Shown piece by piece: positions 3,334-62,217 of a DNA stretch of 64,000 bases. How positions within the stretch are numbered: the first letter of the stretch is position 1; the number at the start of each line of letters is the position of its first letter. The notes beneath the pieces were generated by a model, which was not told the DNA's origin, made no database searches, and was given only the letters and a program-made list of their open reading frames with translations. This DNA comes from Minisyncoccota bacterium. GTDB lineage: Bacteria > Patescibacteriota > Minisyncoccia > Phycocordibacterales > UBA9973. Position numbers and translations under genes: made by a program. The stretch covers positions 33,864 to 97,863 of the forward strand of contig JAGOQQ010000001.1 in NCBI GenBank assembly GCA_017991395.1, read 5' to 3'.

Positions 3334-3765
3334 CTATCCAACTTGGGCAACAATACATCCGAGCAATACAAAAAGGATGAGTCCATATCCTGCATTGAGT
3401 AAAAATATTTCTCTCATCTCTTTATATGATTTTCCACTCCACAACACCGAGCCAATTTCAGACGGAATGACAAATCCAATCCACATAAGTAGCGATGTGC
3501 CGACTGTTTCTCCAATTGTAAAGTTATCAAAATTTAATACCACAATCGAAAGAGTAGCGACTGTCATCGCTGATGCAATCATTTGGATCACATACATTTT
3601 CCACATTTGTTTTTTCCCTTCCTCGATTTTTGCCGTATCATTTGGATTCATTCCCATGAGTGTCATCCATTTTTTTCCAAACAAAGGTCCAAACCAAATA
3701 GAACCAAGCACGATAGATACAAGCACTCCGAGCCCAACTGCTCCCCATGATATTAATGAAAACAT
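3334..3765 (-). CDS. Small 4-TM membrane protein, DUF1761-like
   Basis: 143 aa, hydrophobic, with WFGPLFGKKWM near the N-terminus, which resembles the DUF1761 family. Recalled from memory, not searched. Confidence 0.45.
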   Translation of the reverse strand: MFSLISWGAVGLGVLVSIVLGSIWFGPLFGKKWMTLMGMNPNDTAKIEEGKKQMWKMYVIQMIASAMTVATLSIVVLNFDNFTIGETVGTSLLMWIGFVIPSEIGSVLWSGKSYKEMREIFLLNAGYGLILFVLLGCIVAQVG

Positions 3766-3925
3766 ACACAGTTTATAGGTGATAGGTTATAGAAGATTAA
3801 AACACAAAATCAACCTCATTTCACTATTACCCAACTACTTGCTAATACTACAATTATATCTTCTTTTGGTTTATATGAAAATCAATAAAAAACCTCGCAC
3901 AAGTGCGAGGTTTTCGTTTGTAAGC

Positions 3926-7385: not shown

Positions 7386-7769
7386 CTATTGAGGCAACTT
7401 GGATTCAAGTTCTTTTATTTTTGTTTCTAAAAGCTCTATTGCTTCAGCATTCTTAGATTCTTGTGCATGTTCAAGTTCTTGAGAAAGTGAATCAATGATA
7501 TCGTTGAGCTCATCCTCGTCTGTATATCCAGCATCGATAAATACTGTACCGATATCAATTATGCTTTTGGCTTGTGCGAGCGGATCGTTAGAAGTATCGA
7601 TTGCCTGTTGCGACGCAAACCACTTATCATATAGTTTCTTAGCATTGACGCCTGTTGGATTATCTTCTGTTTCAAAATAATCCTTGCCTTCGTCATGAAG
7701 CGCCTTGTATGCCAAGACAACCTCCTCTCTACTAGGTACCCCTTCTTGATTATTTATTTCTTTTTCCAT
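7386..7769 (-). CDS. Hypothetical acidic protein
   Basis: 127-aa ORF, D/E-rich, with a coiled-coil-like C-terminus. Confidence 0.45.
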   Translation of the reverse strand: MEKEINNQEGVPSREEVVLAYKALHDEGKDYFETEDNPTGVNAKKLYDKWFASQQAIDTSNDPLAQAKSIIDIGTVFIDAGYTDEDELNDIIDSLSQELEHAQESKNAEAIELLETKIKELESKLPQ

Positions 7770-7824
7770 ATCAAAATTATAACAGACAATATCTGACTTG
7801 CAAATGTAATAAAAAATACTTATA

Positions 7825-7853
7825 AAAAACTCCCATTATTGGGAGTTTTTTTC
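7825..7853. terminator. Rho-independent terminator downstream of htpX and its 3' repeats
   Basis: aaaaaactcccattattgggagttttttt. Confidence 0.6.
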
Positions 7854-7865
7854 TTTGTTACCCAA

Positions 7866-8246
7866 GAGGGCATTGATTCGAGATTCCATTGGTGGGTGTG
7901 TCATCCCAAAATGAAATGTGTCATCGAATGCACGACAATTTCATCCGGGACGAGAAGTGGTATTTTTAAGACTTATCTTTTGTATTAAGCAACGCATGTA
8001 TTCGAGATTCCATTGGTGGGTGTGTCATCCCATATGAAAATTGTCCAAAAAAATAATACAGACAATTTCATACGGGACAAGAAGTGGTATTTTTAAGATT
8101 TATCTTTTATGTTAAGTAATGCGTTTATTCTTGATTGCATCGGGGGGTGTGTCATAAAAAGTTGTGCCATTTTTGATGTCTTCCCTTTTGGATCAGCGAG
8201 ATACAGATGTGCAATTGCGGTTGATTGTTTTTTCATTGGCGCGCTA
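7866..8246. repeat. Tandem repeat, ~125-bp unit x3. The proximal copy is the real 3' end of htpX; two degenerate copies lie downstream
   Basis: Copies start near 7870, 7994 and 8121 (attcgagattccattggtgggtgtgtcatccc ...). Each distal copy still encodes MTHPPMESRIHALLNTKDKS*, versus the genuine MTHPPMQSRINALLNIKDKS*. Confidence 0.8.
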
Positions 8247-9019
8247 TGGCCACCAATTTTTCGAAGTGCGTTTGCAAGTCCTTCTGGATAACGAGTCAGG
8301 AGTGCGCCGGATGCATCCGCGAGATATTCACGCCTTCGAGAAATTCCAAGCTGAAGCAACATACCAGCAATCGGCGCGAGTATTGCTGCTACGATTGCGA
8401 CGATCATCAAAATATTTCCACCTTTGTTGTCATTGTCTCGGCTTCCGCTTCCCCACATACCCATTCTCAAAAACACATCAGAAATAATACTAATAAATCC
8501 TACAAGCACGACTGCCACAGTAGATACAAGCATATCGCGATTGCCAATATGGGCGAGCTCATGTGCAATCACTCCTTCGAGTTCACTTCTATCCAATATA
8601 GACATAAGTCCAGTTGTCACTGCCACCACAGAGTGTTTTGGATCGCGTCCGGTTGCAAATGCGTTTGGAGCCGAATCTTGTACAATGTACACCTTAGGCA
8701 TTGGAAGCCCGGCAGTGATTGCAAGATTCTCCACGATTCGTATTAGCTCAATATCATTCTTTGGATCAGCCGGCTTTGCCCCAGCAAGAGAAACGACAAT
8801 TTTATCAGAAAACCAATACGAAGTAATATTCATTACAATTGCAAATATTACAAAAAAATAAAGGATTGTTGGGTCGCCATACACTTGCGAAAAAAGCAGT
8901 CCCAGTCCCACGACCACCATCAAAAACACGGTCATGAGTAGCCATGTTTTGCGAATATTTTGTGCTTGATGTGTGTAAAGTGTGGCCATATAAAAAGTGT
9001 TCTTATTCCAAATCAACAA
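8093..9019 (-). CDS. htpX: Zinc metalloprotease HtpX (peptidase M48)
   Basis: HELAHIGNRD (HEXXH), TM helices, M48 architecture. Start may be the Met at 8989. Confidence 0.85.
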   Translation of the reverse strand: MLIWNKNTFYMATLYTHQAQNIRKTWLLMTVFLMVVVGLGLLFSQVYGDPTILYFFVIFAIVMNITSYWFSDKIVVSLAGAKPADPKNDIELIRIVENLAITAGLPMPKVYIVQDSAPNAFATGRDPKHSVVAVTTGLMSILDRSELEGVIAHELAHIGNRDMLVSTVAVVLVGFISIISDVFLRMGMWGSGSRDNDNKGGNILMIVAIVAAILAPIAGMLLQLGISRRREYLADASGALLTRYPEGLANALRKIGGHSAPMKKQSTAIAHLYLADPKGKTSKMAQLFMTHPPMQSRINALLNIKDKS

Positions 9020-9289
9020 TTATTTCTTGAATGAATCAAGTCCGAGACCTGGTGCGTGACCGTCTATAATATTTCCGCGATCATCTGTCTTCACTACCAT
9101 AAAATCCTCATGCGTGTCAGCATTGTATACATTTGTTGTGACCGATACCAAATCCCCTTCCTTGTTGTATATTTCATAGCGAATTTGTTGACCATCTTGA
9201 TTCTTTACAGATACATGAAATTCACCTGATTGCGCTTCGGCAATGACCTCAATATTGTAATTTTTTTCTAACAGTTGTGTGTAGTTCAT
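9020..9289 (-). CDS. Small hypothetical protein (~89 aa)
   Basis: Likely start is MNYTQLLEKNYNIEV.... The ORF-track 5' extension overlaps the end of DUF2207 and is probably spurious. Confidence 0.4.
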   Translation of the reverse strand: MNYTQLLEKNYNIEVIAEAQSGEFHVSVKNQDGQQIRYEIYNKEGDLVSVTTNVYNADTHEDFMVVKTDDRGNIIDGHAPGLGLDSFKK

Positions 9290-9318
9290 TTGTGTAATCT
9301 TATACTTATAATACCATT

Positions 9319-11262
9319 TTACCAGCTCCCTCCTCCACCTCCTCCGCTTCCGCCCCCAGAAGAACCTCCACCGGATGAACCTGACGATCCACTCGATGAT
9401 GACGATCGTGGCGCAGTGGCACCAATTGACGCACTTGTACTCCGACTGAGTCCTGACAACCCTGTCGCAAACGAGTGCATTGTGAACGCTGAACCTGTAT
9501 CGGATACGAGCCATGCAGGTGGCTCTAGAACGATATTTTCAAATTCCGACACCCACTTTTTTTCGAGACCAAATGCCATCGCGTACGGCAACAATTTTTC
9601 AAAAAGTTCCGGAGTCTGTGCGGGTGCATTGGCAAAATTGATACGATCCTTTTCTGCAACTTTTATGTAGTATTTCAATCCTTCGACTTTTCGACGCAAC
9701 TGCATACCTTCATCAGTATAATCCAATATTTTTATGATCGACAACGACACAGACACCAATAACACAAATGCAGACACTATAAGCGCCCATTTCACACCAA
9801 AAAAACCCATTCCAAAGAAAAATACGAAACTCGCAAGAAATATATATTGAAATAATCCTTCAAGTCTACTATTTTTAAAACTTTTGTATTTAGAAAATAA
9901 TGTATGTTTTTTCGGATTAATAAACTGTTGATCAATCTCATTTTGATAATCACCGAGGGTTTGTGTCGCGAGCTCGTATGTCAAAACACCCATCTGTGAC
10001 TTCGTATTTAATTCCATTTTATTTTTGAGTTCCTCTAGTTCTTCTTGACCCATCGCAGATTTGATTACGTCTGGAATTTTATCAAAAATAGTATTCTCTT
10101 GAATATCAGCAACCTTTTCACCCGTAAGATGTAAAATAAGTCGTGTCTCATTTTGACTCAATTGAGATGTATCCTTTTCTTTGAGTGAAAATGAATACTT
10201 ACCATTTGCTTGATGAATTGTGATATATCCTCTCACTGCCAAATCTACCACCACAGACGAAACATCTTTCAGTCCTAAAAATCCGTTCATTAAATATTTT
10301 GCTTGTACGGGCGAGATGTCGGATGGAAGTGAGTATTCATGTATCAATGGGTGTGTACGATTGAACTTTTTTAGACGTACATATGCGCGAATTTTTTCTT
10401 TCAATAAAAACCATGCGAGAAAAATAGGAATTACTACTGGCCAATATGTGCGAAGCAAATACATATAGTAGTCTTCTCTATCAGGTCTCACCATCACACC
10501 GAGAGGAAACGAAAATGATGCAGTGATACCTTCGTACGGGTTCAACTCAGTCGTACTAAACATGAGTGTATTTGGATTGACCATGTTGAAAGCACCGCAC
10601 GAAGTATTCACGCCAAACGCTCCACAATAAAACGAAATTGACTCTTGATTGATTGGGGTGTTCTCTGGGAGGACGAAAGTAGCGGTGATATTTGAAATTG
10701 GAATATCCCAATCTACACCAATCATATTGAAATACACTTCATCAAAATTCTCAAAAAAACCAACAGAATTTTTTATTGAATAATCTAGAATATATGTATG
10801 CACGCCTTCAATAACAACATCCGGATCACCTATCTTTATGGTGAGATAGGCTGAATTGTCGGTGACATCAAACATGTACGACTGACCACTTGTATCAGTC
10901 ACGTCATGTATAGAAAACTCTACTTCTTTGTACTGCCCTCCTGCTTTGAATCCTGTCGGAATTGTACGAAAAATTCCATGTCTATCTGTACCCTCAAATT
11001 CATACTCAATTGTCTCTGTCACACGCACATCTCCAGACTCATCGAGTACAAACTGTACATCATATGACTGTATATGCTCAAATCCTTTCATTTCCTCACT
11101 AGAATTCAACACCCCTGTTTCATCTGCAGGATTTTGAGCATGTGCAAAATTTAGTGCCCCACAGAGAGCTATCAGCGCAAAAAATACTATCACTATTTTT
11201 ATGAAAAATAATCTGAATATATTTTGCTGATGGTTGGTAAAGTAACTGTGCATGCGTGTCAA
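9319..11262 (-). CDS. DUF2207-family membrane protein
   Basis: Signal/anchor, large extracytoplasmic domain, internal TM helices, and the C-terminal Gly/Ser-rich tail characteristic of the family (SSSSSGSSGSSGGGSSGGGSGGGGGGSW). Confidence 0.7.
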   Translation of the reverse strand: MTRMHSYFTNHQQNIFRLFFIKIVIVFFALIALCGALNFAHAQNPADETGVLNSSEEMKGFEHIQSYDVQFVLDESGDVRVTETIEYEFEGTDRHGIFRTIPTGFKAGGQYKEVEFSIHDVTDTSGQSYMFDVTDNSAYLTIKIGDPDVVIEGVHTYILDYSIKNSVGFFENFDEVYFNMIGVDWDIPISNITATFVLPENTPINQESISFYCGAFGVNTSCGAFNMVNPNTLMFSTTELNPYEGITASFSFPLGVMVRPDREDYYMYLLRTYWPVVIPIFLAWFLLKEKIRAYVRLKKFNRTHPLIHEYSLPSDISPVQAKYLMNGFLGLKDVSSVVVDLAVRGYITIHQANGKYSFSLKEKDTSQLSQNETRLILHLTGEKVADIQENTIFDKIPDVIKSAMGQEELEELKNKMELNTKSQMGVLTYELATQTLGDYQNEIDQQFINPKKHTLFSKYKSFKNSRLEGLFQYIFLASFVFFFGMGFFGVKWALIVSAFVLLVSVSLSIIKILDYTDEGMQLRRKVEGLKYYIKVAEKDRINFANAPAQTPELFEKLLPYAMAFGLEKKWVSEFENIVLEPPAWLVSDTGSAFTMHSFATGLSGLSRSTSASIGATAPRSSSSSGSSGSSGGGSSGGGSGGGGGGSW

Positions 11263-11265
11263 AAA

Positions 11266-11943
11266 TTAAAGTGAGAAATTCATTGTATTCCAATACCATT
11301 GACCATTTTTTAGTTCAAACGCCATCCAATTGTCAGATTGATTTGTTGTCTTGACGGTCATATCATCACCTGTTGGGAAATTCATCACATACAACGTGGG
11401 TGTATTTGAAACACTATCGAACTGTATATCCCATTGTACTTCTGGCTGACGAAGATTTAGTTCATTCACCTGCTTAAACACTATAAACATCTTACTAGCG
11501 TCTTCTTTCGTTATAAGTTCATTCTCTTTTTTTAGATTATCTAGACCTACTTCTTTTGCGTACGCCTCGAGTCCTTCCAGGTCCCCAGACTCAAGTAGTG
11601 TGCGAATCTTCATGAAATTTTTGATTGCATGATCAATAGTAGCTTGTGTAACCGGCTCTCCTACTTTTGTTGAGATTGTACTTGAATCAACTGATTGTAC
11701 TTGTTGTTGATTGTTTGAATTTTGTGTATCCATAGTGTTTGTGATGTTTCCCTCAATATTTTGCGCATCGTTTTGTGCGCTATTTTTTACAATAGTATAG
11801 CCAAAAAATATGACACCTGCTAAAACCATTATTATAATAATAAATTTACTATTTATTCCTCGCACCTTTTCCGGTTGTGCCGGTGGAATGCTTGATGATT
11901 GAGTAAGATTTTCTTCCATATGATTATATTTTTCCTGCATCAA
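11266..11943 (-). CDS. Hypothetical N-anchored protein
   Basis: ORF with a single N-terminal TM (FIIIIMVLAGVIFFGYTIV) and an N/Q/S-rich linker. Confidence 0.45.
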   Translation of the reverse strand: MMQEKYNHMEENLTQSSSIPPAQPEKVRGINSKFIIIIMVLAGVIFFGYTIVKNSAQNDAQNIEGNITNTMDTQNSNNQQQVQSVDSSTISTKVGEPVTQATIDHAIKNFMKIRTLLESGDLEGLEAYAKEVGLDNLKKENELITKEDASKMFIVFKQVNELNLRQPEVQWDIQFDSVSNTPTLYVMNFPTGDDMTVKTTNQSDNWMAFELKNGQWYWNTMNFSL

Positions 11944-12589
11944 GTGACTTTTGCATAGCTTCTTTCAAATTTATTGAATCAAGCTGTGTCAGATCCACAT
12001 ACCATACACCTTCAATTTTTGCATAAGAAATTTCAACGTTACCCTTTATTGGGCCAATGTAGCCATTCTCTTTTGCATTCTTGATTAGCTCGTCGATATT
12101 TTCCTGAAATAGTACGTATTTCAAACTACACTTTGCCACAGCATTTTCACCGCTATCTATTTGTTCAAATGTACATGACTCGCCTGCGTCGAGTGGTGCC
12201 GAATACTCACTATACTTCAAACGACTAAGTGGCCACTTCAAACCATCCCAAAGACTTCCATCTTCATGCATTGCGCGAAGTTGTTTCTCTTTATCAGTTT
12301 GAACTTCTTCTGACACACCCTTTTTCGTCGCAACTAGTTTATACACTAAGACATAATTTTCAATATCTTTATTTTCTAGTGCCATTGTCAGGCTTTCGGT
12401 CGCGGCCGCGATTCCCTTCAAATCCCATTCTTCAAGGGTGAAATCGGACTTACTCTCTTCTTCGAGTTTTATTAAGTTTAAATTTTGAGACATTGTTGTA
12501 GTGTTGTTCGAATTAGTAAAATAATAAAATACGCCCGCTATCGCAATGAGCCCTACAATAGTTAAAATAGTTTTGGTAATTGTATTCAT
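11924..12589 (-). CDS. Hypothetical N-anchored protein
   Basis: N-terminal TM (ILTIVGLIAIAGVFYYF). 20-nt overlap with the downstream ORF. Confidence 0.45.
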   Translation of the reverse strand: MNTITKTILTIVGLIAIAGVFYYFTNSNNTTTMSQNLNLIKLEEESKSDFTLEEWDLKGIAAATESLTMALENKDIENYVLVYKLVATKKGVSEEVQTDKEKQLRAMHEDGSLWDGLKWPLSRLKYSEYSAPLDAGESCTFEQIDSGENAVAKCSLKYVLFQENIDELIKNAKENGYIGPIKGNVEISYAKIEGVWYVDLTQLDSINLKEAMQKSLDAGKI

Positions 12590-12625
12590 TTAAATCTATT
12601 ATTGCACACTTATAAATGCGAAAAA

Positions 12626-13153
12626 TTAGTTTGCAAAATCTGCATCATCACATTCAATTCGCGCCACTGCATTTGTTGCTTCACTTGTATCAGTGTTTAC
12701 AAAGTCACCTTCAGAAACTGCGGTGAGTGCGACTTTGCATAAATTCTTCTTATCAAACGCATTTTTCTCTGGATGTGGGTTTATTTCAATTCGAAGAATA
12801 TTGGTTCCCTCCTTGAGATACGAAGAACTTATTGGTATTGATGCTGCAGACCCAAAAAGCGGATCACCATCATCAATCAGGTTTTCATTAACATATATTT
12901 TGTATGCGAGCGCCCCTCCGAAGGTATTTGGGAGTGCATAATTGAGTGCCATTGTTTCCTTGTCCAATTCAAACTCTTGCTGTTTTATTATTTTTGCAGA
13001 TGAGTCATAGGCAGATTGCGTGTTCTCACTTTCGTTGTTGTTGTTCATAAATAGTTCAGAATTATTTAATAAATAGCCACCTACTGCAATGAGTGCAATA
13101 ACCAGCAATATTTTTGGGATACTGTTACCTTTTTGGGAATACATAGTCGACAT
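12626..13153 (-). CDS. Hypothetical N-anchored protein
   Basis: N-terminal TM (ILLVIALIAVGGYLL). Confidence 0.45.
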   Translation of the reverse strand: MSTMYSQKGNSIPKILLVIALIAVGGYLLNNSELFMNNNNESENTQSAYDSSAKIIKQQEFELDKETMALNYALPNTFGGALAYKIYVNENLIDDGDPLFGSAASIPISSSYLKEGTNILRIEINPHPEKNAFDKKNLCKVALTAVSEGDFVNTDTSEATNAVARIECDDADFAN

Positions 13154-13218
13154 AAAAAATAAATAATTATTCTATTATATTTAATTTTGAATTATTGTTT
13201 TGCATATTAGTAAGTGTT

Positions 13219-13800
13219 TTAGAAAATCTTCACAGAATCAATCACGGATAGATTTAAGTTATTAATATCTCCATAAAATTCAAGTGTTTTATAACTTGAA
13301 CCGTTTAACTTAAACATTACATGAAATTTATTTGATTCGTATGCATCTTGTGTATATCGGTATGAAATTCCGTTACTATTAGTCTTATTGCTTATGAATG
13401 TTCCGAGTACAGGTTGAAATGAGTACTGACCACTTTCAGCATCTGACAATTCGTCTGTAGTGGGTGTTCCAAACACTAAACCTGAAGAAGAGAACGATCC
13501 GATAAATTGCTTACTACCGTCTTGGTTTGTCAAAAACTTTTCTTTAACTTCTCCATAAGCCGGTGGGTACATAAACGAAATACCAACCTGATCATTAGTG
13601 TATTGGACTAAATTATTTTGTGGTTGATAGTCTGATTCCGCAGTATTATTTGTAGTTTGTGCTTGTCCAGCTGGAGACTGGAGTTGCTGATCAATAACAA
13701 TCTGATCAGATTTTAGCTTAGAAAAAACCATATATATAAGGAATCCGATTACAATCACAAGAAGTACGATAACTATTGGGTTTGTTTTATTGTTTTGCAT
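13219..13800 (-). CDS. Hypothetical N-anchored protein, paralog of 14459..15022
   Basis: MQNNKTNPIVIVLLVIVIGFLIYMVF here versus MENNKPNPIVIVLLVIAVALLAYIAF in the neighbour. Confidence 0.5.
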   Translation of the reverse strand: MQNNKTNPIVIVLLVIVIGFLIYMVFSKLKSDQIVIDQQLQSPAGQAQTTNNTAESDYQPQNNLVQYTNDQVGISFMYPPAYGEVKEKFLTNQDGSKQFIGSFSSSGLVFGTPTTDELSDAESGQYSFQPVLGTFISNKTNSNGISYRYTQDAYESNKFHVMFKLNGSSYKTLEFYGDINNLNLSVIDSVKIF

Positions 13801-13833
13801 TTTTATAAATTACTTAAGTCTTGTTTTTAACTC

Positions 13834-14457
13834 TTATGCTGCCTGTATTAAATTACTTTTTCTATTTGAAATTCCAAAGAACAATAGCACAGCAAAAATA
13901 CCACCGAGTGTGTCTGAGAGCATATCTTTTTGCGCATCCCAAATATCACCTTGACTTCCAAGCACTGCGAGTCCTGCGGTTGGATCTGAATTCACTGCAT
14001 ACCACCATTCAAAAAGCTCATAGACCGCTGCAACTGAAATGATTATACAAAGTGCAAAAAATCCTGCTTGAATTTTTGTCTTCACGATACTTCGTGAGCG
14101 TAAATATTCCATAATTGGAAATGCATAAAATCCGACTGCAAAATGCCCTATTCTATCGTAATTATTTCTCGCGAATCCGAAAGCTTGTGATACTGCATCA
14201 AACGGTACTCGTTCAAAGGTATAGTGTCCGCCGATTGTGTGCATGAAAATCAACACACTCATCAAGACATAAGACAACGAAGAAAATCTAACACCTCGAA
14301 ACCAAAGTATTACGAGAAAAACTACAATAGGAATAATTGTCATATTTTCTGCAAACCATACAGAACGGTCAAATGGATTAATGGCTAAAATTGAAAAAAG
14401 AACAACGTAAATTGCAAGAAGTGTTGCTGAAACTTTTTTTGAATAATTGTTTTCCAT
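13834..14457 (-). CDS. DUF2238-family (YjdF-like) membrane protein
   Basis: MHTIGGHYTFERVPF...DRIGHF motif typical of DUF2238. Start is probably the Met at 14457. Confidence 0.55.
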   Translation of the reverse strand: MENNYSKKVSATLLAIYVVLFSILAINPFDRSVWFAENMTIIPIVVFLVILWFRGVRFSSLSYVLMSVLIFMHTIGGHYTFERVPFDAVSQAFGFARNNYDRIGHFAVGFYAFPIMEYLRSRSIVKTKIQAGFFALCIIISVAAVYELFEWWYAVNSDPTAGLAVLGSQGDIWDAQKDMLSDTLGGIFAVLLFFGISNRKSNLIQAA

Positions 14458-14458
14458 G

Positions 14459-15022
14459 CTATTTAACAAGGATTGAAGAATAATCAATCATTGATCCACC
14501 TTCTGAGTCATCAGTTATAGTTAGTCCGTAGTCACCAAAGTCAATCCATGCAATTATTTGTTTGGGCCCATTTTGGAATTGTTTAACCGTGTATGATCCA
14601 TAATTTTTTGCACCCAGATATGTTGCAGTTGATGAAGAAGTTCCATTTTCAAGTTCAGAAAATAGTGCACGATGTTGCGCGAGTGCATTAACTGGAATCT
14701 CAATTACATAAAACCTAATATTGTCGTTACTGTCGAGAAACATAACAAATGACGAATCTTCTTCTGGGCGTGCATTATACGGGGTCAGACTGTTTGAATA
14801 ATTGAAGCTGATAGTTTTTCCCGTTTTTGTACTTTTTTTCACAAATGAAGCAAGATTGTTTGCTTGATTATTTTGACCAGTTGAATTTCCCTGATTTTGA
14901 GAATTCACTTCTTGAATCTGTTTTTGTTCGTTGTTATCCTTTCCGAATGCGATATATGCAAGTAATGCAACAGCGATCACAAGGAGTACGATAACTATTG
15001 GGTTTGGTTTATTGTTTTCCAT
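14459..15022 (-). CDS. Hypothetical N-anchored protein, paralog of 13219..13800
   Basis: Shared N-terminal anchor (see 13219..13800) followed by an N/Q-rich linker. Confidence 0.5.
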   Translation of the reverse strand: MENNKPNPIVIVLLVIAVALLAYIAFGKDNNEQKQIQEVNSQNQGNSTGQNNQANNLASFVKKSTKTGKTISFNYSNSLTPYNARPEEDSSFVMFLDSNDNIRFYVIEIPVNALAQHRALFSELENGTSSSTATYLGAKNYGSYTVKQFQNGPKQIIAWIDFGDYGLTITDDSEGGSMIDYSSILVK

Positions 15023-22243: not shown

Positions 22244-22285
22244 GAGTAGTTAGTAGTTAGTAGTTAGTAGTTAGTAGTTAGTAGA
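22244..22285. repeat. Heptanucleotide microsatellite (AGTTAGT/CTACTAA)x~6 immediately upstream of the 21453..22241 start codon
   Basis: agtagttagtagttagtagttagtagttagtagttagtag. In mRNA sense, (ctactaa)n ctactcttATG. Confidence 0.8.
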
Positions 22286-22478: not shown

Positions 22479-22587
22479 GTGTTGGCGACAACCTACTTTC
22501 GCCCGAAGACTATCATCGGCTCAGTAAGGCTTAACTTCTCTGTTCGGAATGGAAAGAGGTGTTTCCCTTACGATAGATCACCAACAC
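22479..22587 (-). rRNA. rrf: 5S rRNA
   Basis: Reverse complement reads GTGTTGGTGATCTATCGTAAGGGAAACACC...CCGAACAGAGAAGTTAAGCC...GAAAGTAGGTTGTCGCCAACAC. It has the conserved CCGAAC/GAAGT and AGTAGG blocks and the helix I pairing. Confidence 0.85.
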
Positions 22588-22692
22588 TAAATGTTCGATT
22601 TTATATGTGCACACAATTCAAAAATTTTTTCAAACTCGACGAAGCGATTTCTCGCCCCGTCTTAGTGAGTTCCCGCGAACTAAGTTCGGGGT

Positions 22693-22715
22693 CACCAACA
22701 CTAAATGTTCGATTT
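22693..22715. repeat. 23-nt direct duplicate of the 5S 5'-end junction
   Basis: caccaacactaaatgttcgattt occurs at 22579-22601 (spanning the 5S 5' end) and again at 22693-22715. Confidence 0.6.
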
Positions 22716-22805: not shown

Positions 22806-22895
22806 TGATCTCGACGGGATTCAAACCCGCGACCTCAGAACCAGCTCCTGGCAATCTACTGGTGCTACGCTCTAATCAGACTGAGCTACGAGACC
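22806..22895 (-). tRNA. tRNA-like gene between 23S and 5S with canonical acceptor, D and T arms but no canonical anticodon arm; about 14 nt extra. Possibly intron-containing or a pseudo-tRNA
   Basis: RC reads GGTCTCG TA GCTC AGTCTGATTA GAGC ... GCGGG TTTGAAT CCCGT CGAGATC A. No 5/7/5 stem-loop can be found between the D and T arms. The only local pairing there is ACCAG/CTGGT around a 14-nt loop. Confidence 0.45.
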
Positions 22896-23575
22896 GTACT
22901 CAGGAAACGGGCGATATGGACGGTGTCCTACGACCTGATATGTTGACCTGCTCAACTCGATCTAGTCTATACCCTTTTGTATTCCATCGTTAAATGGGCC
23001 TACTTAAGTCTGAGGGATACCCCCAATAATCCGTACTCGAACAGCTTCATACTGTTGCGCAACCAGCATTAGTGCTGATTCACGGCTATAAGACACGTCA
23101 AGTATGTTGCGTATGCTTGGAAACCAAGTATACATTAACAACACGACAACACTTTTGGTTTTACTTCCATGTTTGGGTTCATTCCATTAGTGACGCTTCC
23201 TGAATGTTTTTAATTTTTGCAAAATGTACTATTTATACTTGAATGCTTAAATAGTTGTTGTCATAATAGTGATTTTCAAAGTTCCTAATAGGAATCGAAA
23301 CATTAGTACGCCTCGGCTGAGTACATTACTGTACGTACACCTAGCGCCTATCGACGTGATCATCTCTCACGCTTCTTAAACGATTCCTAATCTTGAAGGT
23401 GGCTTCCCTCTTAGATGCTTTCAGAGGTTATCCATTCCCGACATAGCTACCCTGCATTGCTTTTGGCAAAACAGCAGGTACACCAGAGGTCAGTTCACCC
23501 CGGTCCTCTCGTACTAGGGGCAAGTCTTCTCAAGAATCAACGCCTGCAGTAGATAGGAGACCAACCTGTCTCACG

Positions 23576-24038
23576 CACCTACTTGCCCCACATAGCTTTT
23601 TGAAAAAAGCGACGTGGGGCCATACTCATATATCGACGAAGAGATATGAGTATGTTTTTCTCGTATTACTACGAGGATTGGACTGTAACTTCATCTCTTT
23701 CAAGATGTTTGACATTCAGTCTCTACGGGTCACAGTCATTATAAAATGACATAGTTCCCTCGGTATTGCCCCATCCGCGATTTTCCGCGTTTAATCCGCG
23801 AACTTCTGCGTTTGTCGGGTTCCACCGATATAAGTCAACTTCTCATACACTATTTCTAATGTATGCCGCCGTGAAATGTACTTACTGTACATTCATGGTC
23901 TTGTCTCTGTAAACATAAGTATTTTTACAAATACTTCCCTCAACGGATTCAAACTGCCCAATGCGTAGAACCTTATTCGTAGAGCGCAGAGCGTCGATCA
24001 AGATGCAATTGCATTTTGAATCAAACGTTTTACGTTCC
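23576..24038 (-). other. ~463-nt insertion in 23S domain V at the GAACGU|CGUGAGACAG junction (E. coli ~2593-2596 region); candidate ORF-less group I intron
   Basis: Exon-like TTAGAACGT (ends in U) lies upstream. The insert ends ...TAGGTG (terminal G) directly before CGTGAGACAGG. There is no ORF >=60 aa on the rRNA strand inside it. Confidence 0.5.
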
Positions 24039-24734
24039 ACGTTCTAAGATCTACGACCTGAACGGTTTGAACCCAGCTCGCGTACCTTTTTAAATGGCGA
24101 ACAGCCATACCCTTGGTAGCTTCTCCACCACCAGGATAAGGTGAGCCGACATCGAGGTGCCGAACTCCGCCGTCGATATGAACTCTTAGGCGGAACTAGC
24201 CTGTTATCCCTAGAGTAGCTTCTATCCGTTAATCTTCGACCGCATCTAATGCGAATCGTCGGTTCACTAGGTTCTGCTTTCGCACCTGCTTGGGATGTAC
24301 CCCTCACAGTCAAGCCAGCTTGTGCCCTTACACTATCGGCACGGTTTCCATTCGCGCCTAGCTGACCTTAATAAACCCCTCCGTTACTCTTTAGGAGGGT
24401 ACCGCCCCAGTAAAACTACCTTCCAGAAACTGTCTCTCTCCGTTTTTGCCGTAGAGATTAGAATATGCCCATTAAAAGAGTGGTATTTCACTGACGAGTA
24501 TTACATCACCGAGATGATGCACATAACCTCTCCCACCTATGCTACGCATTTAATAAACATACTCAATATCAAGATGTAGTAAAGCTTCTAGGGTCTTTTC
24601 GTCTAACTGCAGGTAACCGGCATCTTCACCGGTATTGTATTTTCACCGAGCAGGTCCCCGAGACAGTTTCCCAGTCATTACACCATTCGTGCGCGTCGGA
24701 ACTTACCCGACAAGGTACTTCGCTCTTCTGTACC

Positions 24735-24942
24735 TAAAAGAAGGACTCTATCTTCATCCATTTCATAAAGAAATTAGGATGTATGGCGCTGGTCTCTCGA
24801 TAGCCATATTTGGACTTGCTATGCATTACTGCACAACAAGGTAGCTTTTTGTTTGGTATAACTTCATCACACTTTTGATCAATTGTTTATCTTTTTCTAT
24901 GACGGTCCCAGTCCTTCACTACACTTCAATGAAATGTAGTGA
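24735..24942 (-). other. ~208-nt insertion in the 23S between CCUAAGGU and AGCGAAGUACCUUGUCGGGUAAGUUCCGAC (E. coli ~1931 site)
   Basis: The universally contiguous CCTAAGGT|AGCGAAATTCC is interrupted. The insert contains a hairpin tcactacatttcattgaagtgtagtga. No ORF. Confidence 0.5.
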
Positions 24943-24977
<35 letters not shown>

Positions 24978-25914
24978 CAGGGCTTATATCAGCCAGCTCA
25001 TGTCTTGCGACAATCACCACCGATATTTGACCTTCTGGCATTGGTCAGGTGTCACCCCCTATACATCCTCTTACGAGTTCGCAGGGAGCTGTGTTTTTGA
25101 TAAACAGTTGCCAGGAATACTTTCGCTGCGGCCACGCACATCACGCAGAGCACGATGTGCAAGCTAAAAGTTAAAAAGTTTAAAGCTAAAAGAAGAGAAA
25201 TGCATTTTGTATTTCCTTTCAGCTTTTGACTTTAAGCTTTCAGCTTATTGCCATCACATTCTATGTGATGTGCGCGGCAAGCCTTATCCCAAAGTTACGG
25301 CTGCTTTTTTGCCGAGTTCCTTGGGGACCTCTCACTCGTTCGCCTTGGTCTACTCGACCTGACTACCTGTGTCGGTTTACGGTACGGGTTCTCACATATT
25401 AGAGCTTAGAAGCTTTTCTTGGAAGCGTGCTTTATATCATCCCCATGGGCGTACCCACAGATTTATGCTCTGCTTGCATGTGTCTTGCGACTGCTTCCGG
25501 ATTTTCCTGGAAGCCACACTCACAGCACAAACTCAAATCCATTAATGAGCGATATATACTACACTCCGTCCCTCCATCGCATACGTGAGAAGTTAAGGAA
25601 TATTAACCTTATGTCCATCGGGTGCGGTTTTCACCATTCCCTTAGGCCCGACTAACCCTTGGCTGATTATCATAGCCAAGGAAACCTTAGTCTTTCGGCG
25701 GGAGGGGATCTCACCCTCCTTGCGGTTACTTGTGCCAACATTCTTACTTCTCATCACTCCAGAGTGGGTCACCCCTTCTCCTTCACTGCGGATGAGAACA
25801 CTTGCCTACCACTGCACTTGTCCGAAGACAAATACAATCCTCAAATTCGGTATCACGTTTAGCCCCGATTATTTTCGGCGCGAAATCTCTTGATGAGTGA
25901 GCTGTTACGCTTTC

Positions 25915-25946
<32 letters not shown>

Positions 25947-26530
25947 TCATTGTCAGAGAAATATCACATCCTTGATTTGCACTTAACGTGAATTTAGGGA
26001 CCTTATTTAGAGATCTGGGCTGTTTCCCTTTTGACATATGGAGCTTAGCCCCCATTGTCTAACTGCTAAGTTATGACTCTTGGTATTCGGAGTTTGATAG
26101 ATTTCGCGAGATTGCTCCCTGTCGAGATCTTCCAGTGCTCTACCCCCAAGAGGAACACTTAACGCTAGCCCTAAAGCTATTTCGGCAAGAACCAGCTATT
26201 ACCAGGTTCGATTAGCTTTTCACTCCGACCCACGCGTCATCCGAAAGTATTGAACGGCTTATCGGTTCGGTCCTCCATCTGTCTTTCGACAAACTTCAAC
26301 CTGCACATGGGTAGCTCACCTGGCTTCGGGTCTTATGCATACTACCAATTACGCGCTATTAACACTTGGTTTCCCTGGGGCTCCGTTGCGTAGCAACTTA
26401 GCCGAGCAGCATGCATAAACTCGTTGGCTCATTCTTCAATAGGCACGCCATGACGGAACACGATAAATCGCGTCCGCTCTGACTCCTTGTAAGCATATGG
26501 TTTCAGGTCTATTTCACTGTCCTTCCGGAC

Positions 26531-26571
<41 letters not shown>

Positions 26572-27545
26572 ATTCAAAAATATTTAGCCTTGCCAGTTAG
26601 TTCTGGCAGATTCCTCCAAGCTATTCGTGTCTTAGAGTACTCAAGAGCAGTAACGAAAGAGATATAATTATTTAAGTTACAGGACTATCACCTTCTTTGG
26701 TCGTGCTTTCCAGCACCTTCACATATAATTATATTTTTTGACTCTTCTCGTAAAACGAAGTTACTGTCTTACAACCCCTCACAGTAATATCCGAAGATAT
26801 TTCGTAAGGTTTGGGCTTCTCCGGTTTCGCTCGCCGCTACTCACGGAATTCATATTTGTTTCTTTTCCTCCAGGTACTGAGATGTTTCACTTCCCTGGGT
26901 ATGCATCTACACGTCAAGCGCATAGATTATCTCGAATAACCGAGATAGAGTTTCCTCATTCAGAAATTTCCGGATCAAAGGTTGTTAGGCACCTCCCCGA
27001 AACTTATCGCAGCCACACCACGTCTTTCATCGCTTTTTGAATCCTAGGCATCCACCATATGCTCTTAATTTCCTATTAGGAAATTTAAAAACCACTAAGT
27101 ATAGATATTTCTGCATATATCTATACGACAACATCACCGTACTTCAAACCGCTTCGAAGTACAGTGAACTCTGTTTTCAATACACAAAAAGAAAAGACCC
27201 TTAACTGTGTGTATCGAAACAGGATGAACTTTTCAAACAACCAGCCTTTCTGTCGTGAACTAAAAAACCGCCTGTTGGCGGTAAAAGAAAACCCCAAAGG
27301 ATTAACCTTTACGCCAACGAAGTGATTTTTTATTACTTACCATATCGTGAGAAAGAGTATATATGAAAGCAAAACCAAAGTCAAGTGATTTTTGCCTTGC
27401 AGAACAAGGCTTTTTCCCCTATTCCATACAAGCCTTATATTGCTTAATTTTAAAGGGAAAATGAGATTTTTTTGGGTTAAATTTTTTGATTATTTTTAGG
27501 TATTTTTATAGCTTTTTCCATCTTTAGAATTTTATTTTTCTTATC

Positions 27546-51964: not shown

Positions 51965-52265
51965 ACAAAATATTATATCATACAAAAAACACCTTTCGGT
52001 GTTTTTTCTAATAGATTTATTACCAAGCAAAATGTGGGACACATTTCTGGGATAGATTTTGAATTGGGAGATCCAAAATCATATCAAGAAATGCATGCTC
52101 CATTTTGCACTGGTAAAAAGAAAACCGCTTTCGCGGTTGTTCTTTGTTACCAAGCAAAATGGTTGTGTTTTAACAGTTTTTATATATAAAAACTAAAAAA
52201 CACATGCTCCATTTTGCACTGATATAAAAAAATCCCTTTCGGGATTTTTTTCTACCAAGCAAAAT
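51965..52265. repeat. Three tandem ~110-nt modules downstream of rpsG. Each has a copy of the rpsG 3' end (cattttgcttggta, minus sense) plus a distinct rho-independent terminator hairpin
   Basis: ccaagcaaaatg recurs at ~52022, ~52148 and ~52254. catgctccattttgcactg occurs twice. Hairpins: aaaaaacacctttcggtgtttttt, aaaaccgctttcgcggtt, aaaaaaatccctttcgggattttttt. Confidence 0.7.
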
Positions 52266-52722
52266 GGGCAAATGCTTTGTTTGATTCTGCCATTTTGTGG
52301 GTGTCGTCTCGTTTTTTTACAGAAGCTCCTTCACCTTTTGATGCTGCGATGAGTTCATCTGCAAGCTTTACTGCCATTGGCTTTCCTTTTCCACTTCGAG
52401 CTGCTCCGACAATCCATCGTGTCGCGAGTGCGAGTCGTCGTTCTGGTCGAACTTCTCGAGGAACCTGATAGTTTGCACCACCGATTCGTCGTGAACGTAC
52501 TTCCATCACTGGAGATGCGTTTTTGATAGCGAGGTCAAAGATTTCAAGCGGGTTTGGATTTGCTGTCTTTTCTTTGATGATATCAAACGCGCCATAGACC
52601 ACCTTTGAGGCAGCAGTCTTTTTTCCGTCCCACATAACATTGTTAATAAACTTCTGAAGTCTTTCAGAGTTATACAATGGGTCTGGGCCCGGCATATTTC
52701 GATTTTTTACTTTTCTTCGCAT
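52252..52722 (-). CDS. rpsG: 30S ribosomal protein S7
   Basis: MRRKVKNRNMPGPDPLYNSERLQKFINNVMWDGKKTAAS...KAFAHFAW. Confidence 0.9.
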   Translation of the reverse strand: MRRKVKNRNMPGPDPLYNSERLQKFINNVMWDGKKTAASKVVYGAFDIIKEKTANPNPLEIFDLAIKNASPVMEVRSRRIGGANYQVPREVRPERRLALATRWIVGAARSGKGKPMAVKLADELIAASKGEGASVKKRDDTHKMAESNKAFAHFAW

Positions 52723-60717: not shown

Positions 60718-62217
60718 CTATTTTAAATCATGCGGTTCGGCACTCTCTTTCTTTTTGTACCACCATACACACATCGCGACATACCAAAGGAGCACGACTA
60801 CGATTGAAAAGTACGGGATCACGACGTGCGAAAGTGGCGCACCACTCCCCCGTACGGAAATTGAGAGTATGCACGAAAGTATAAAAGATGAGAGTGCGAC
60901 CAATGGAAGCGCGAGTACTGGAAAAATCATAAATATAAATGTCGAGAGCGCACCAAAAAGCATTGAAAGTGGCACGAGTGGTGCAATGAGAACATTTGCA
61001 GGAATCGACACCAATGACACGATGCCCATTTTATATGCAACAAATGGAAGTACAGTGAGATTTGTCGCAATCGTCGCAGAAACAATTTCTTTTAGTCCTT
61101 TGTTTTTTATCCATTTAAACCAAAGTGCCACGAGTGGTGTGACATAGACCAGTCCCACTGTCGCGATAAATGAAAGCTGAAACGACACATCAAATACAAG
61201 TATCCATGGATTTGAAAGTATCATAATCGAACCCGCAATCAAAAGCGCCCGTCCAATATCAAATTCCTTTCCTGTCATTCGTGAAAGGTATGCGAGAAGT
61301 CCCATGATTGTGGCGCGAACAATTGTGGCACCGAGTCCGGTCATTATTGCAAAAAGCACCACCGCAATCGCTCCACCAACAATTCCAAATGTCACTCCAA
61401 GTAGCGGTATCAGTACATACGCAATCGCTTCTGAAATTATTGTGACGTTGTATCCAGAAAGCGCCACAATGTGTATCGTCCCGGTTTTTATAAATGAATC
61501 CTGAAGTTCTTTTGATATTCCACCTCTCTCTCCAATCAAAATACCAAGGAGCAAACCTTGTTCGTCTTTTGCGTGTGAATCTATAATTGTACTTCGAATA
61601 TATTCTTTGATTTTATACAGTGTTTTGAGTACTGGTGAAGCTTTACCTTCACTTAAAAACGTATACTTTGGATATCGTATTTCAAAAAACACCCTTTCCT
61701 TTGCTAAATATCCTGAATAATCAAATATTCTTCCGGTGTCTGTTTCAAACGGTTGCGGGATTATAAAATCGCCTGCAACCTGAAGAATATCGCCGTACTT
61801 CACCTGTACACCCTTGGGTAATGTCACAAGTATTCGAGCCTCATTATATTTTACAATCACCTTTGTATTTGTCTCTCTGTAGTCAGGTGGGGAGATTATT
61901 TGCATCGGAGCATCGACGCGTGGCACTGCACTCAATGATTCAATCACATTTTTTCGATACTCCTTTTCGGAGTGAAATCTAAAAACTGAAAATGAAAGTA
62001 CACACAAACACAGTGCACCCAACAACAAAAATGTTTTCGTTTTTCTAAAAAATGTTCTCACCAGCACGAGTGCGAGTGCCAAGAATATGAGTGGTGTATA
62101 TTTTGGCGTCGAGTAAAACGACTCAGTAAGCACAGCTACAAAAATAGATCCTGCCGAAATCGGCACGATCCATTTCTTCAACGTCACTATTAACCTAGCA
62201 AATTCTTGAGTGTCCAT
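60718..62217 (-). CDS. comEC: ComEC/Rec2 competence channel (membrane domain only: DUF4131 + competence domain)
   Basis: Polytopic membrane protein with the ComEC core (GTIHIVALSGYNVTII). Lacks the C-terminal MBL domain, which is encoded separately at 59161..60015. Confidence 0.7.
   Translation of the reverse strand: MDTQEFARLIVTLKKWIVPISAGSIFVAVLTESFYSTPKYTPLIFLALALVLVRTFFRKTKTFLLLGALCLCVLSFSVFRFHSEKEYRKNVIESLSAVPRVDAPMQIISPPDYRETNTKVIVKYNEARILVTLPKGVQVKYGDILQVAGDFIIPQPFETDTGRIFDYSGYLAKERVFFEIRYPKYTFLSEGKASPVLKTLYKIKEYIRSTIIDSHAKDEQGLLLGILIGERGGISKELQDSFIKTGTIHIVALSGYNVTIISEAIAYVLIPLLGVTFGIVGGAIAVVLFAIMTGLGATIVRATIMGLLAYLSRMTGKEFDIGRALLIAGSIMILSNPWILVFDVSFQLSFIATVGLVYVTPLVALWFKWIKNKGLKEIVSATIATNLTVLPFVAYKMGIVSLVSIPANVLIAPLVPLSMLFGALSTFIFMIFPVLALPLVALSSFILSCILSISVRGSGAPLSHVVIPYFSIVVVLLWYVAMCVWWYKKKESAEPHDLK

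Follow-up and report, generated by a model that had tools for sequence, protein, structure and literature searches.

The htpX gene of a Minisyncoccota bacterium (assembly GCA_017991395.1) is followed by two further copies of its own 3' end, lying behind its stop codon in a stretch of 64,000 nucleotides of contig JAGOQQ010000001.1 (positions 33,864 to 97,863), hereafter the window. This array is probably a stack of allelic htpX 3' ends, which would have been built by recombination between related Paceibacteria populations and not by local duplication. The interpretation is drawn from a comparison of the locus with its counterparts in related genomes (loci numbered from L001, with HtpX proteins numbered P0002 and onward), where the same types of tail occur as working gene ends. 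An earlier sequence-only reading of the window had attributed the repeats either to a very recent slippage or duplication event or to selection on the repeated copies.

The htpX gene lies on the minus strand at 8093 to 8989 and encodes an M48 metalloprotease of 298 amino acids (Pfam PF01435, Peptidase_M48, E = 1.7e-35), and an identical protein is present in other assemblies. The window was matched to contig JAGORK010000002.1 of assembly GCA_018062865.1. Its reading frame terminates in ...LFMTHPPMQSRINALLNIKDKS* and includes the working tail, U1 (MTHPPMQSRINALLNIKDKS plus stop, 8155 to 8093), the coding part of a first module. Downstream follow, on the same strand, a 64-nt spacer, sp1 (8029-8092), made of a 16-nt linker and an imperfect hairpin with its core at 8076 to 8029; a displaced tail, U2 (MTHPPMESRIHALLNTKDKS plus stop, 8028 to 7966), the coding part of a second module; a 61-nt spacer, sp2 (7905-7965), with a linker and a hairpin of a second module subtype (stem 7953 to 7901); and another displaced tail, U3 (MTHPPMESRINALLGNKEKNSQ plus stop, 7904 to 7836), apparently the ancestral one, which matches the tail of L001 at 69 of 69 nt. 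The last codons of U3 lie inside an intrinsic terminator at 7824-7851 on the minus strand, an inverted repeat with a 12-bp stem (-15.1 kcal/mol) followed by a T-run, which would belong to the ancestral gene end and holds the stop codon of U3 in its loop. Because this is the only canonical terminator, and the only terminator-like site within the array, the array lies between the working htpX stop and the terminator, where the sequence-only reading had placed it.

The same reading had counted three units of ~125 bp. Three in-frame tail segments are indeed present, and Tandem Repeats Finder detects a 127-nt period at 7876-8155 (2.2 copies, 82% matches), but only two units are full, U1+sp1 of 127 nt (8029-8155) and U2+sp2 of 124 nt (7905-8028), the third being a tail only. 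Each full unit comprises 20 codons, a stop, a 16-nt linker and a strong hairpin, and the two are 85% alike across their first 95 nt. The statement that both distal copies differ from the working end by two or three substitutions and keep ~80 nt of downstream sequence does not hold for U3: its first 29 nt are identical to U2, but its last eight residues and all sequence downstream, including the terminator, differ. The spacers measure 61-64 nt, and U3 shares none of them. The identical stretch common to U2 and U3 amounts to 29-33 nt (33 with the preceding TGGG), and the identical run between U1 and U2 is 11 nt long (ATGACACACCC). All tails begin at the conserved (F)MTHPP codons and diverge after about codon 13.

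Each of these tails corresponds to a type that forms the working C-terminus of HtpX in other genomes. Alleles closer than that of L001 came from a search of the large protein collection. Among them, the protein P0002, which is 98% identical to the HtpX of the window and differs from residue 262 onward only, ends in the U2 tail in L165-167, L185, L186, L189 and L192. U1-type tails are the working ends of P0006 and P0007, and U3-type tails those of P0005, P0009, P0016 and the protein of L001; P0007 and P0009 have near-identical gene bodies and different tails. L001 carries the closest HtpX in the species-representative collection (85% identical), and its single tail is U3, identical in protein as well as in DNA.

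Three states of the locus were found in the sample. A single tail of U3 type with the terminator occurs in L001, L174, L175/L176 and L182 (in the last as a GNKEKSSQ variant). Two tails in the order U2-sp2-U3-terminator-ORF127 were found in at least seven other assemblies (L165, L166, L167, L185, L186, L189, L192), an arrangement equal to the window array minus its first 127 nt, U1+sp1. L168-L173 have a U1-type tail, the sp1 hairpin, a U3-type tail, the terminator and a tRNA-Ser gene, and L177, L178 and L181 show other two-tail variants with lineage-specific displaced tails (GNKEKNSH, GNNAKDIK). Three tails are present in the window only. Throughout the sample, alleles ending in N[IT]KDKS are always followed by a spacer hairpin and a displaced GN...-type tail with a real terminator, and alleles ending in a GN... 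tail have a single tail in every case. The sequence-only reading had allowed for sister genomes with a single copy and no trace of the array; some sisters are indeed single-copy, but others have arrays one unit shorter, and the htpX array is therefore a real polymorphism.

The modules fall into two subtypes, one with sp1 (window U1, L168, L178 and L181) and one with sp2 (window U2, L165-167, L177, L185, L186, L189 and L192). Each occurs alone elsewhere, and the U2+sp2 unit is near-identical to that of L165-167. Diversity among modules is 0.44 at the third codon positions of the first 13 codons and 0.07-0.10 in codons 14-21, the linker and the 5' arm of the hairpin; the first 13 codons, which are shared with resident tails, are open to conversion. 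The 56-nt module-specific part (tail codons 14-21, stop, linker and 5' arm) is identical in the window, L168 and L178, the gene bodies of which are ~80% identical.

Breakpoints were located by comparison of closely related loci. Between the window and L165 there is a clean 127-nt indel (8029-8155, that is, U1+sp1). Beside it, the window differs from the P0002-type sequence of L165 by 14 mismatches in ~90 nt (8163-8252, minus strand, codons ~246-275, ...KKQ...SKMAQLF), a divergence of 16%, as against 1.5% in the rest of the gene body and <1% downstream. An indel and an adjoining diverged patch in an otherwise near-identical locus point to an imported tract rather than a local event. The closest match to the patch is a P0006-type allele, at 88.9%. 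A second clean indel, of 125 nt and comprising tail, stop, spacer and hairpin, separates L168 from L175, with 93-97% identity on both sides.

The comparison with L001 provides a further contrast along the locus. The window shows ~77% DNA identity to L001 along the gene body. Between the start of U3 and ~7400, an interval that takes in the terminator and ORF127, the figure rises to 96-99%, and further on it drops to 67-90%. The high-identity stretch of ~500 nt (window 7400-7904, L001 3835-4340), which contains U3, the terminator, a promoter-like site and ORF127, is far above the identity of its flanks, and a recent recombination patch is thus indicated. ORF127 itself (7386-7769, minus strand, with the promoter-like site at 7776-7804) belongs to no family, and its exact protein was found on 13 contigs from many samples.

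The pattern of substitutions shows how the tails diverged. U1 and U2 differ at 12 nt, which amount to 8 synonymous and 3 non-synonymous codon changes (proportions of synonymous and non-synonymous differences, pS 0.72 and pN 0.063), and only 0.016% of random placements of 12 substitutions give so few amino-acid changes without a new stop (P = 1.6e-4). This bears out the earlier remark that the changes are non-random and coding-like. Between U1 and U3, 9 synonymous changes and 1 non-synonymous change are found in the alignable 14 codons. Synonymous sites between the tails are almost saturated, and the adjoining non-coding 35 nt of spacer differ at 2 positions only. The synonymous bias implies that the tails diverged while each was a working gene end, so that the coding-like conservation is explained by the evolution of each tail as a working end in some lineage and not by selection on the displaced copies. 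The displaced U3 is in fact decaying in several populations, by a frameshifting 4-nt deletion in L189 and L192 and by a CAA to TAA change in L185 and L186, which speaks against the selection on repeated copies that had been suggested. No Shine-Dalgarno sequence precedes the displaced ATGs, which are paired in hairpin stems, and the displaced tails are best read as untranslated remnants in the htpX 3' untranslated region.

Folding of the repeat units, which the sequence-only reading had recommended, revealed a structure common to both spacers. sp1 and sp2 fold as hairpins of 22-23 bp that abut the next ATG and pair with it (UUGUCCC.../...GGGAUGA); the sp1 stem extends to 8080 and 8025, pairing with the AUGA of U2, and the sp2 stem takes in the AUGA of U3. 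In the clade of the window, a displaced tail always adjoins a hairpin that pairs with its first codon. The hairpins are far more stable on the htpX sense strand because of G.U pairs (sp1, -23.5 kcal/mol sense, z score -6.3, vs -15.6 antisense; sp2, -23.7 vs -13.6), and sp2 differs from sp1 by one double change from U-A to G.U. Within the htpX transcript they probably have a role as RNA structures, such as stabilising the 3' end or keeping the downstream AUG closed. They were rejected as intrinsic terminators, which require a G+C-rich stem and a U-tract: the stems of sp1 and sp2 are A+U-rich and are followed directly by AUGACACA, with no U-tract. A promoter within the spacers was also rejected, the one weak match (9/12, in sp1) being at chance level and not conserved in sp2. 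Rfam 15 gave no family at gathering score at the locus in the window, L168, L174 or L089.

The relatives have no terminator hairpin in common after htpX, and their downstream neighbours differ (gatC, tRNA and others). Neither the 64-kb window nor 193 related loci (~1 Mb) contain the hairpin module beyond htpX. When the wider hairpin family was considered (foot CCCGTA...TAYGGG or GTCCC...GGGATGA), one suggestive case was found outside the htpX modules, the remaining matches to the foot lying in coding sequence at chance level. This case is a hairpin between gatC and gatA in L019 (4220-4300), with the 5' foot CTTGTCCCGTA and the 3' foot TGGGATGA, in which the ATG is the gatA start; both match the feet of the htpX spacer hairpins. 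The motif of its 5' foot was also found after gatC in L007 and at one site in L050.

The comparisons show the array states, the indels and their breakpoints, which allele each tail belongs to, and that displaced copies decay; on this basis the following history may be proposed. The ancestral arrangement would have been gene body, U3-type tail and a terminator whose loop holds the stop codon. A module of ~125 nt (tail ...ALLN[IT]KDKS, stop, 16-nt linker and strong RNA hairpin) would then have entered at the codon before the conserved THPP motif and taken over as the working end, pushing the old tail and terminator downstream and producing the two-tail state. In the lineage of the window, a second import would have brought a donor tract of ~90 nt of 3' body plus U1-sp1 into a genome with U2-sp2-U3, the left crossover falling in the body near 8252 and the right one between the donor's displaced tail and the recipient's U2, the first 29 nt of which are common. 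This second exchange would have been out of register and hence have added one unit. Units may be lost again via recombination between the direct repeats, which would account for the patchy distribution of one, two and three tails. The first module may have formed by homology-facilitated illegitimate recombination (HFIR), possibly via ATGA(C) microhomology at the donor's next start codon. As the vehicle of the exchanges, we infer DNA uptake followed by homologous recombination. A ComEC-type competence protein, the DNA-uptake channel (PF03772 with DUF4131), is encoded in the window at 60718-62217 on the minus strand.

The same anatomy was found in a second lineage, L089/L090, whose HtpX is 70% identical to that of the window. 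Here a working tail ...WMTHPPIQDRIKALLSN is followed by 15 nt, a hairpin and a displaced tail (A)THPPIADRIRALIGQ that begins from the same codon. The L089 hairpin is perfect and GC-rich (-27.7 kcal/mol, z -6.5), and its foot, CCCGTA...TAYGGG, is common to this lineage and the clade of the window. The G+C content at third codon positions (GC3) of the L089 working tail is 0.12 vs 0.52 in the body (P = 0.0013), making the tail compositionally foreign; the displaced tail, which lacks a start codon, has a GC3 of 0.31, with no clear difference from the body. None of the fetched loci is a close relative of L089 suitable for breakpoint mapping.

Several points weigh against the proposal of stacked alleles. 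The first formation of a module was not observed, since no N[IT]KDKS tail with hairpin was found without a displaced tail behind it, and the exact donor of the imported patch of the window is not in the data, its best match being the 88.9% mentioned above. Natural transformation is suggested by ComEC only. The complete three-tail path is seen in one contig of a metagenome-assembled genome (MAG), complemented by the logic of graph breaks. Moreover, homologous recombination does not easily explain the L089 case, as judged from DNA that is only ~66% identical to the clade of the window, and on present sequence comparisons it would leave the same junction codon and the similar hairpin foot in both lineages unexplained.

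Displacement of C-terminal ends is known from rhs, cdiA and type VI secretion system (T6SS) effector loci (Jackson et al., 2009, as cited in PMC5361080), and the orphan 3' fragments of such loci serve other strains as their main gene end (Koskiniemi et al., 2014, PMC3967940). As in these systems, htpX has a constant body, a variable 3' end and a junction at a conserved coding motif (FMTHPP), and incoming ends displace older ones, which pile up downstream without initiation signals. Like the orphans of rhs and cdiA, U2 and U3 are the main gene end in other strains, and recombination between main and orphan copies can swap ends. In contrast to those genes, htpX encodes a housekeeping membrane protease, the variable part of which is ~8 residues of a 20-codon tail; its units measure ~125 nt instead of kilobases, and their cargo is a 64-nt spacer with an RNA hairpin. 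No toxin domain or immunity gene accompanies the array (tails of 20-22 codons, spacers of 61-64 nt without a reading frame), which is therefore not a polymorphic toxin system. HFIR has been proposed as the mechanism of C-terminal displacement (PMC5361080) and is described in natural transformation (de Vries and Wackernagel, 2002, and Prudhomme et al., 2002, cited in PMC5361080; PMC3240628). In this organism, the first tail-hairpin-tail arrangement could result from a single homologous anchor, the gene body, combined with a join that is non-homologous or microhomologous, and ComEC is present. However, HFIR normally joins at arbitrary microhomologies, whereas the two lineages have the htpX join at one and the same codon and in every case immediately behind the hairpin.

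The htpX unit also resembles the short repetitive elements REP/BIME, ERIC, Correia and RPE and the miniature inverted-repeat transposable elements (MITEs) in its size of ~125 nt, its strong hairpin, its position just after a stop codon within the transcript and its presence/absence polymorphism. Unlike such elements, which have many dispersed copies and lack the last codons of a neighbouring gene, the module was found at htpX only in the window and the 193 loci. Integrative elements can also carry replacement gene ends, as do e14 and phage 21 in the icd gene of E. coli, and islands are found at the 3' ends of tRNA and tmRNA genes. As with elements of the icd type, the working end of htpX differs from the displaced original mostly at synonymous sites, the original lies downstream, and successive events give several displaced ends. 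In contrast to them, only 61-64 nt separate the htpX tail copies, no integrase was found and there is no similarity to phages or plasmids.

A parallel case occurs in rpsG, as the sequence-only reading had pointed out. Among 121 open reading frames (ORFs) of at least 90 amino acids scanned in the window, a displaced tail at the protein level was found in htpX only (score 90; others at most 39), and rpsG (52252-52722, minus strand) appeared in the same scan with a 15-nt exact repeat. Downstream of rpsG, at 51982-52267, there are three copies of its last 5 codons (CATTTTGCTTGGTA[AG]), each followed by a different homologous terminator, and two diverged inverted tail copies. Assemblies with the identical S7 protein have 1, 2 or 3 units of tail plus terminator, the next gene following after 84, 205 and 313 nt, respectively, and the three-unit state is found identical in an independent metagenome (L202). 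The three terminators have an A-tract, a GAAA loop and a T-tract in common, and their stems (ATCCC/GGGAT, ACCGC/GCGGT, ACACC/GGTGT) differ by compensatory pairs, which indicates that these, too, are allelic versions. The rpsG array differs from that of htpX in its displaced tails of 5 codons, in the true terminator of each unit and in the inverted tail copies; nevertheless, the two arrays are the same class of event. In L174, where a tRNA-Ser(GGA) gene follows htpX, a second copy of the tRNA 3' end TCCCGCTCTCTCCGC lies 174 nt downstream, and there is a 65-nt repeat with 86% identity between its copies (3429-3700 and 3571-3819), which looks like the same kind of stacked 3' ends.

A different explanation, unlikely though it is, would take the unit of ~125 nt as a non-autonomous mobile element, MITE-like or a miniature integrative module, site-specific for the conserved THPP codons of htpX, which brings a gene end of its own and a hairpin recognised by a recombinase encoded elsewhere. 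The clean indels of 125-127 nt fit such an element, as does the identity of the module-specific part across gene bodies that are ~80% identical. In the distant L089 lineage the junction falls at the same codon, the hairpin foot is similar and the tail is compositionally foreign; the identical U2/U3 core of 29-33 nt resembles attL/attR, and rpsG has modules of similar size. Against this, no integrase, transposase or reverse transcriptase was found among the Pfam matches of the 68 largest ORFs of the window (in which many ORFs have no Pfam match) or of called neighbours in related loci, that is, within 4 kb in the loci with precomputed Pfam matches. No further copy of the module is present in the window or in ~1 Mb of related loci, and viral contigs, phages and plasmids gave no match to it. 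The direct repeats that flank it are non-identical within a genome (77-90% in L168 and L178, the two repeats of L168 being 77% alike), and homologous recombination with flanking homology would suffice for its spread inside the clade.

An active targeting of modules is nonetheless a minor possibility, for which three features leave room: the origin of the first module, the junction that always follows the hairpin and the use of the same codon in a distant lineage. Should it apply, the units of htpX, rpsG and perhaps tRNA-Ser could represent an undescribed class of miniature gene-end replacement modules of Patescibacteria, which would pass from genome to genome and insert at the conserved last codons of housekeeping genes; this broader proposal is likewise doubtful. 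Such modules would bring substitute codons, a stop and their own hairpin or terminator, via a hairpin-guided recombinase or a microhomology- or hairpin-dependent step of transformation.

The htpX tail array is real and not an artefact of assembly. Three independent Logan assemblies are identical to htpX-U1-sp1 at every base and end precisely where the 33-nt stretch common to U2 and U3 would start, at the in-branch of the assembly graph. Contigs with ORF127 come from four runs of the same accession series, of which two also gave htpX contigs, and they start precisely at the out-branch, where that stretch ends. The U2-sp2-U3 junctions were found in seven other assemblies. The artefact that the sequence-only reading had considered is thus countered by independent data. 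It is quite improbable that two co-occurring strains with two tails each gave rise to a chimeric three-tail contig via the 33 identical nt (including the preceding TGGG), even though two-tail strains of both types exist and the full three-tail path is seen in the MAG contig only. In the runs of the SRR11088xxx series that contain the exact HtpX of the window, the htpX contigs extend over kilobases without strain bubbles, and P0002-type contigs were not recovered from them. No break interrupts these contigs within the gene body, so the breaks at the in-branch and the out-branch are more readily attributed to an internal repeat in a single genome than to a mixture of two strains. The identical recovery of the three-unit rpsG array in L202 argues in the same direction, and the displacement in two-tail loci would stay real even if the contig were a chimera.

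An in-place tandem duplication of the htpX 3' end and the sequence downstream, by slippage or unequal crossing-over and with later divergence, is highly improbable and, for the array of the window, largely refuted. The head-to-tail arrangement with a period of 124-127 nt suggests it, and U2 resembles a chimera of U3 (5') and U1 (3'), as might result from unequal crossing-over. Copies in a slippage repeat are each other's closest relatives; U1+sp1 and U2+sp2, by contrast, are each closer to units in other genomes, where each occurs alone, than to each other. A pS of 0.72 with a bias of purifying selection is impossible for a fresh, non-functional copy, U3 has no downstream sequence in common with the other units, and the 16%-diverged patch beside the indel indicates that foreign DNA arrived together with U1-sp1. 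The very recent slippage or duplication proposed from the sequence alone is therefore not upheld, the more so as synonymous sites are near saturation and U3 is the genuine gene end in L001, L174, L175 and L182. The very first module in the clade could have arisen by in-place duplication.

Least probable of all, and to be given hardly any weight, is that selection keeps the array, with the displaced tails translated as peptides of 20-22 amino acids or held as a silent reservoir for switching of the HtpX C-terminus: the displaced tails of the window clade all begin with ATG, their frame is open in most populations and recombination between repeats would swap the C-terminus, as for orphan rhs ends (PMC3967940), but the Shine-Dalgarno sequence is missing, the hairpin stem takes up the AUG, a start codon is lacking in the displaced tail of L089, U3 carries frameshift and nonsense variants in several populations, and the differences between tails are limited to the final ~6-8 residues, past the conserved M48 C-terminal motif, which would make a functional switch unlikely. 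A diversity-generating retroelement with variable and template repeats is ruled out, since only 6 of the 12 differences between U1 and U2 fall at an A of U1, the other 6 at other bases, and a reverse transcriptase was not found in the window. A CRISPR-like array was rejected because the "spacers" are homologous to each other and the repeats imperfect, and a phage or plasmid attP site because spacer and junction have no match in viral contigs and the whole array none in phage and plasmid collections. Neighbouring ORFs had no PHROG matches, and nothing relevant was found in the literature on htpX as an integration site.

Gene order upstream of htpX (window 9020-14487) differs among close relatives. 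A block of LemA, Gmad2 and DUF2238 lies directly upstream of the gene in L168 and ~5 kb away in the window, where DUF2207 and several ORFs without a Pfam match intervene; in L175, LemA and Gmad2 with other ORFs lie directly upstream. Elsewhere in the window, the 23S rRNA gene (23284-27078, minus strand) spans 3795 nt vs 2925 nt in the model and has a group I intron at 23659-23922, found at gathering score; further insertions in it are likely. The 5S rRNA gene lies at 22480-22585 and a tRNA gene at 22806-22895. A perfect 24-nt direct repeat (22578-22601 and 22692-22715, 114 nt apart) overlaps the 5' end of the 5S rRNA gene, with arrays of the heptamer AGTAGTT nearby at 22245-22284.

For the annotation of genomes, the stacking of alleles would be a warning against taking repeated gene tails behind a stop codon for small genes or assembly errors. 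The range of C-terminal displacement, a process familiar from toxin loci, would be extended to ordinary genes without an obvious selective cargo, and if it is true that the modules are actively targeted, they would constitute a new kind of miniature mobile element. One-, two- and three-unit variants coexist in nature and the exchanged tracts can be traced, as in the 90-nt patch and the 127-nt unit of the window, so the array would be a simple natural marker with which to follow recombination and DNA uptake in organisms beyond the reach of cultivation. It would thus offer a base-by-base view of uncultivated Patescibacteria populations exchanging and stacking short pieces of housekeeping genes.

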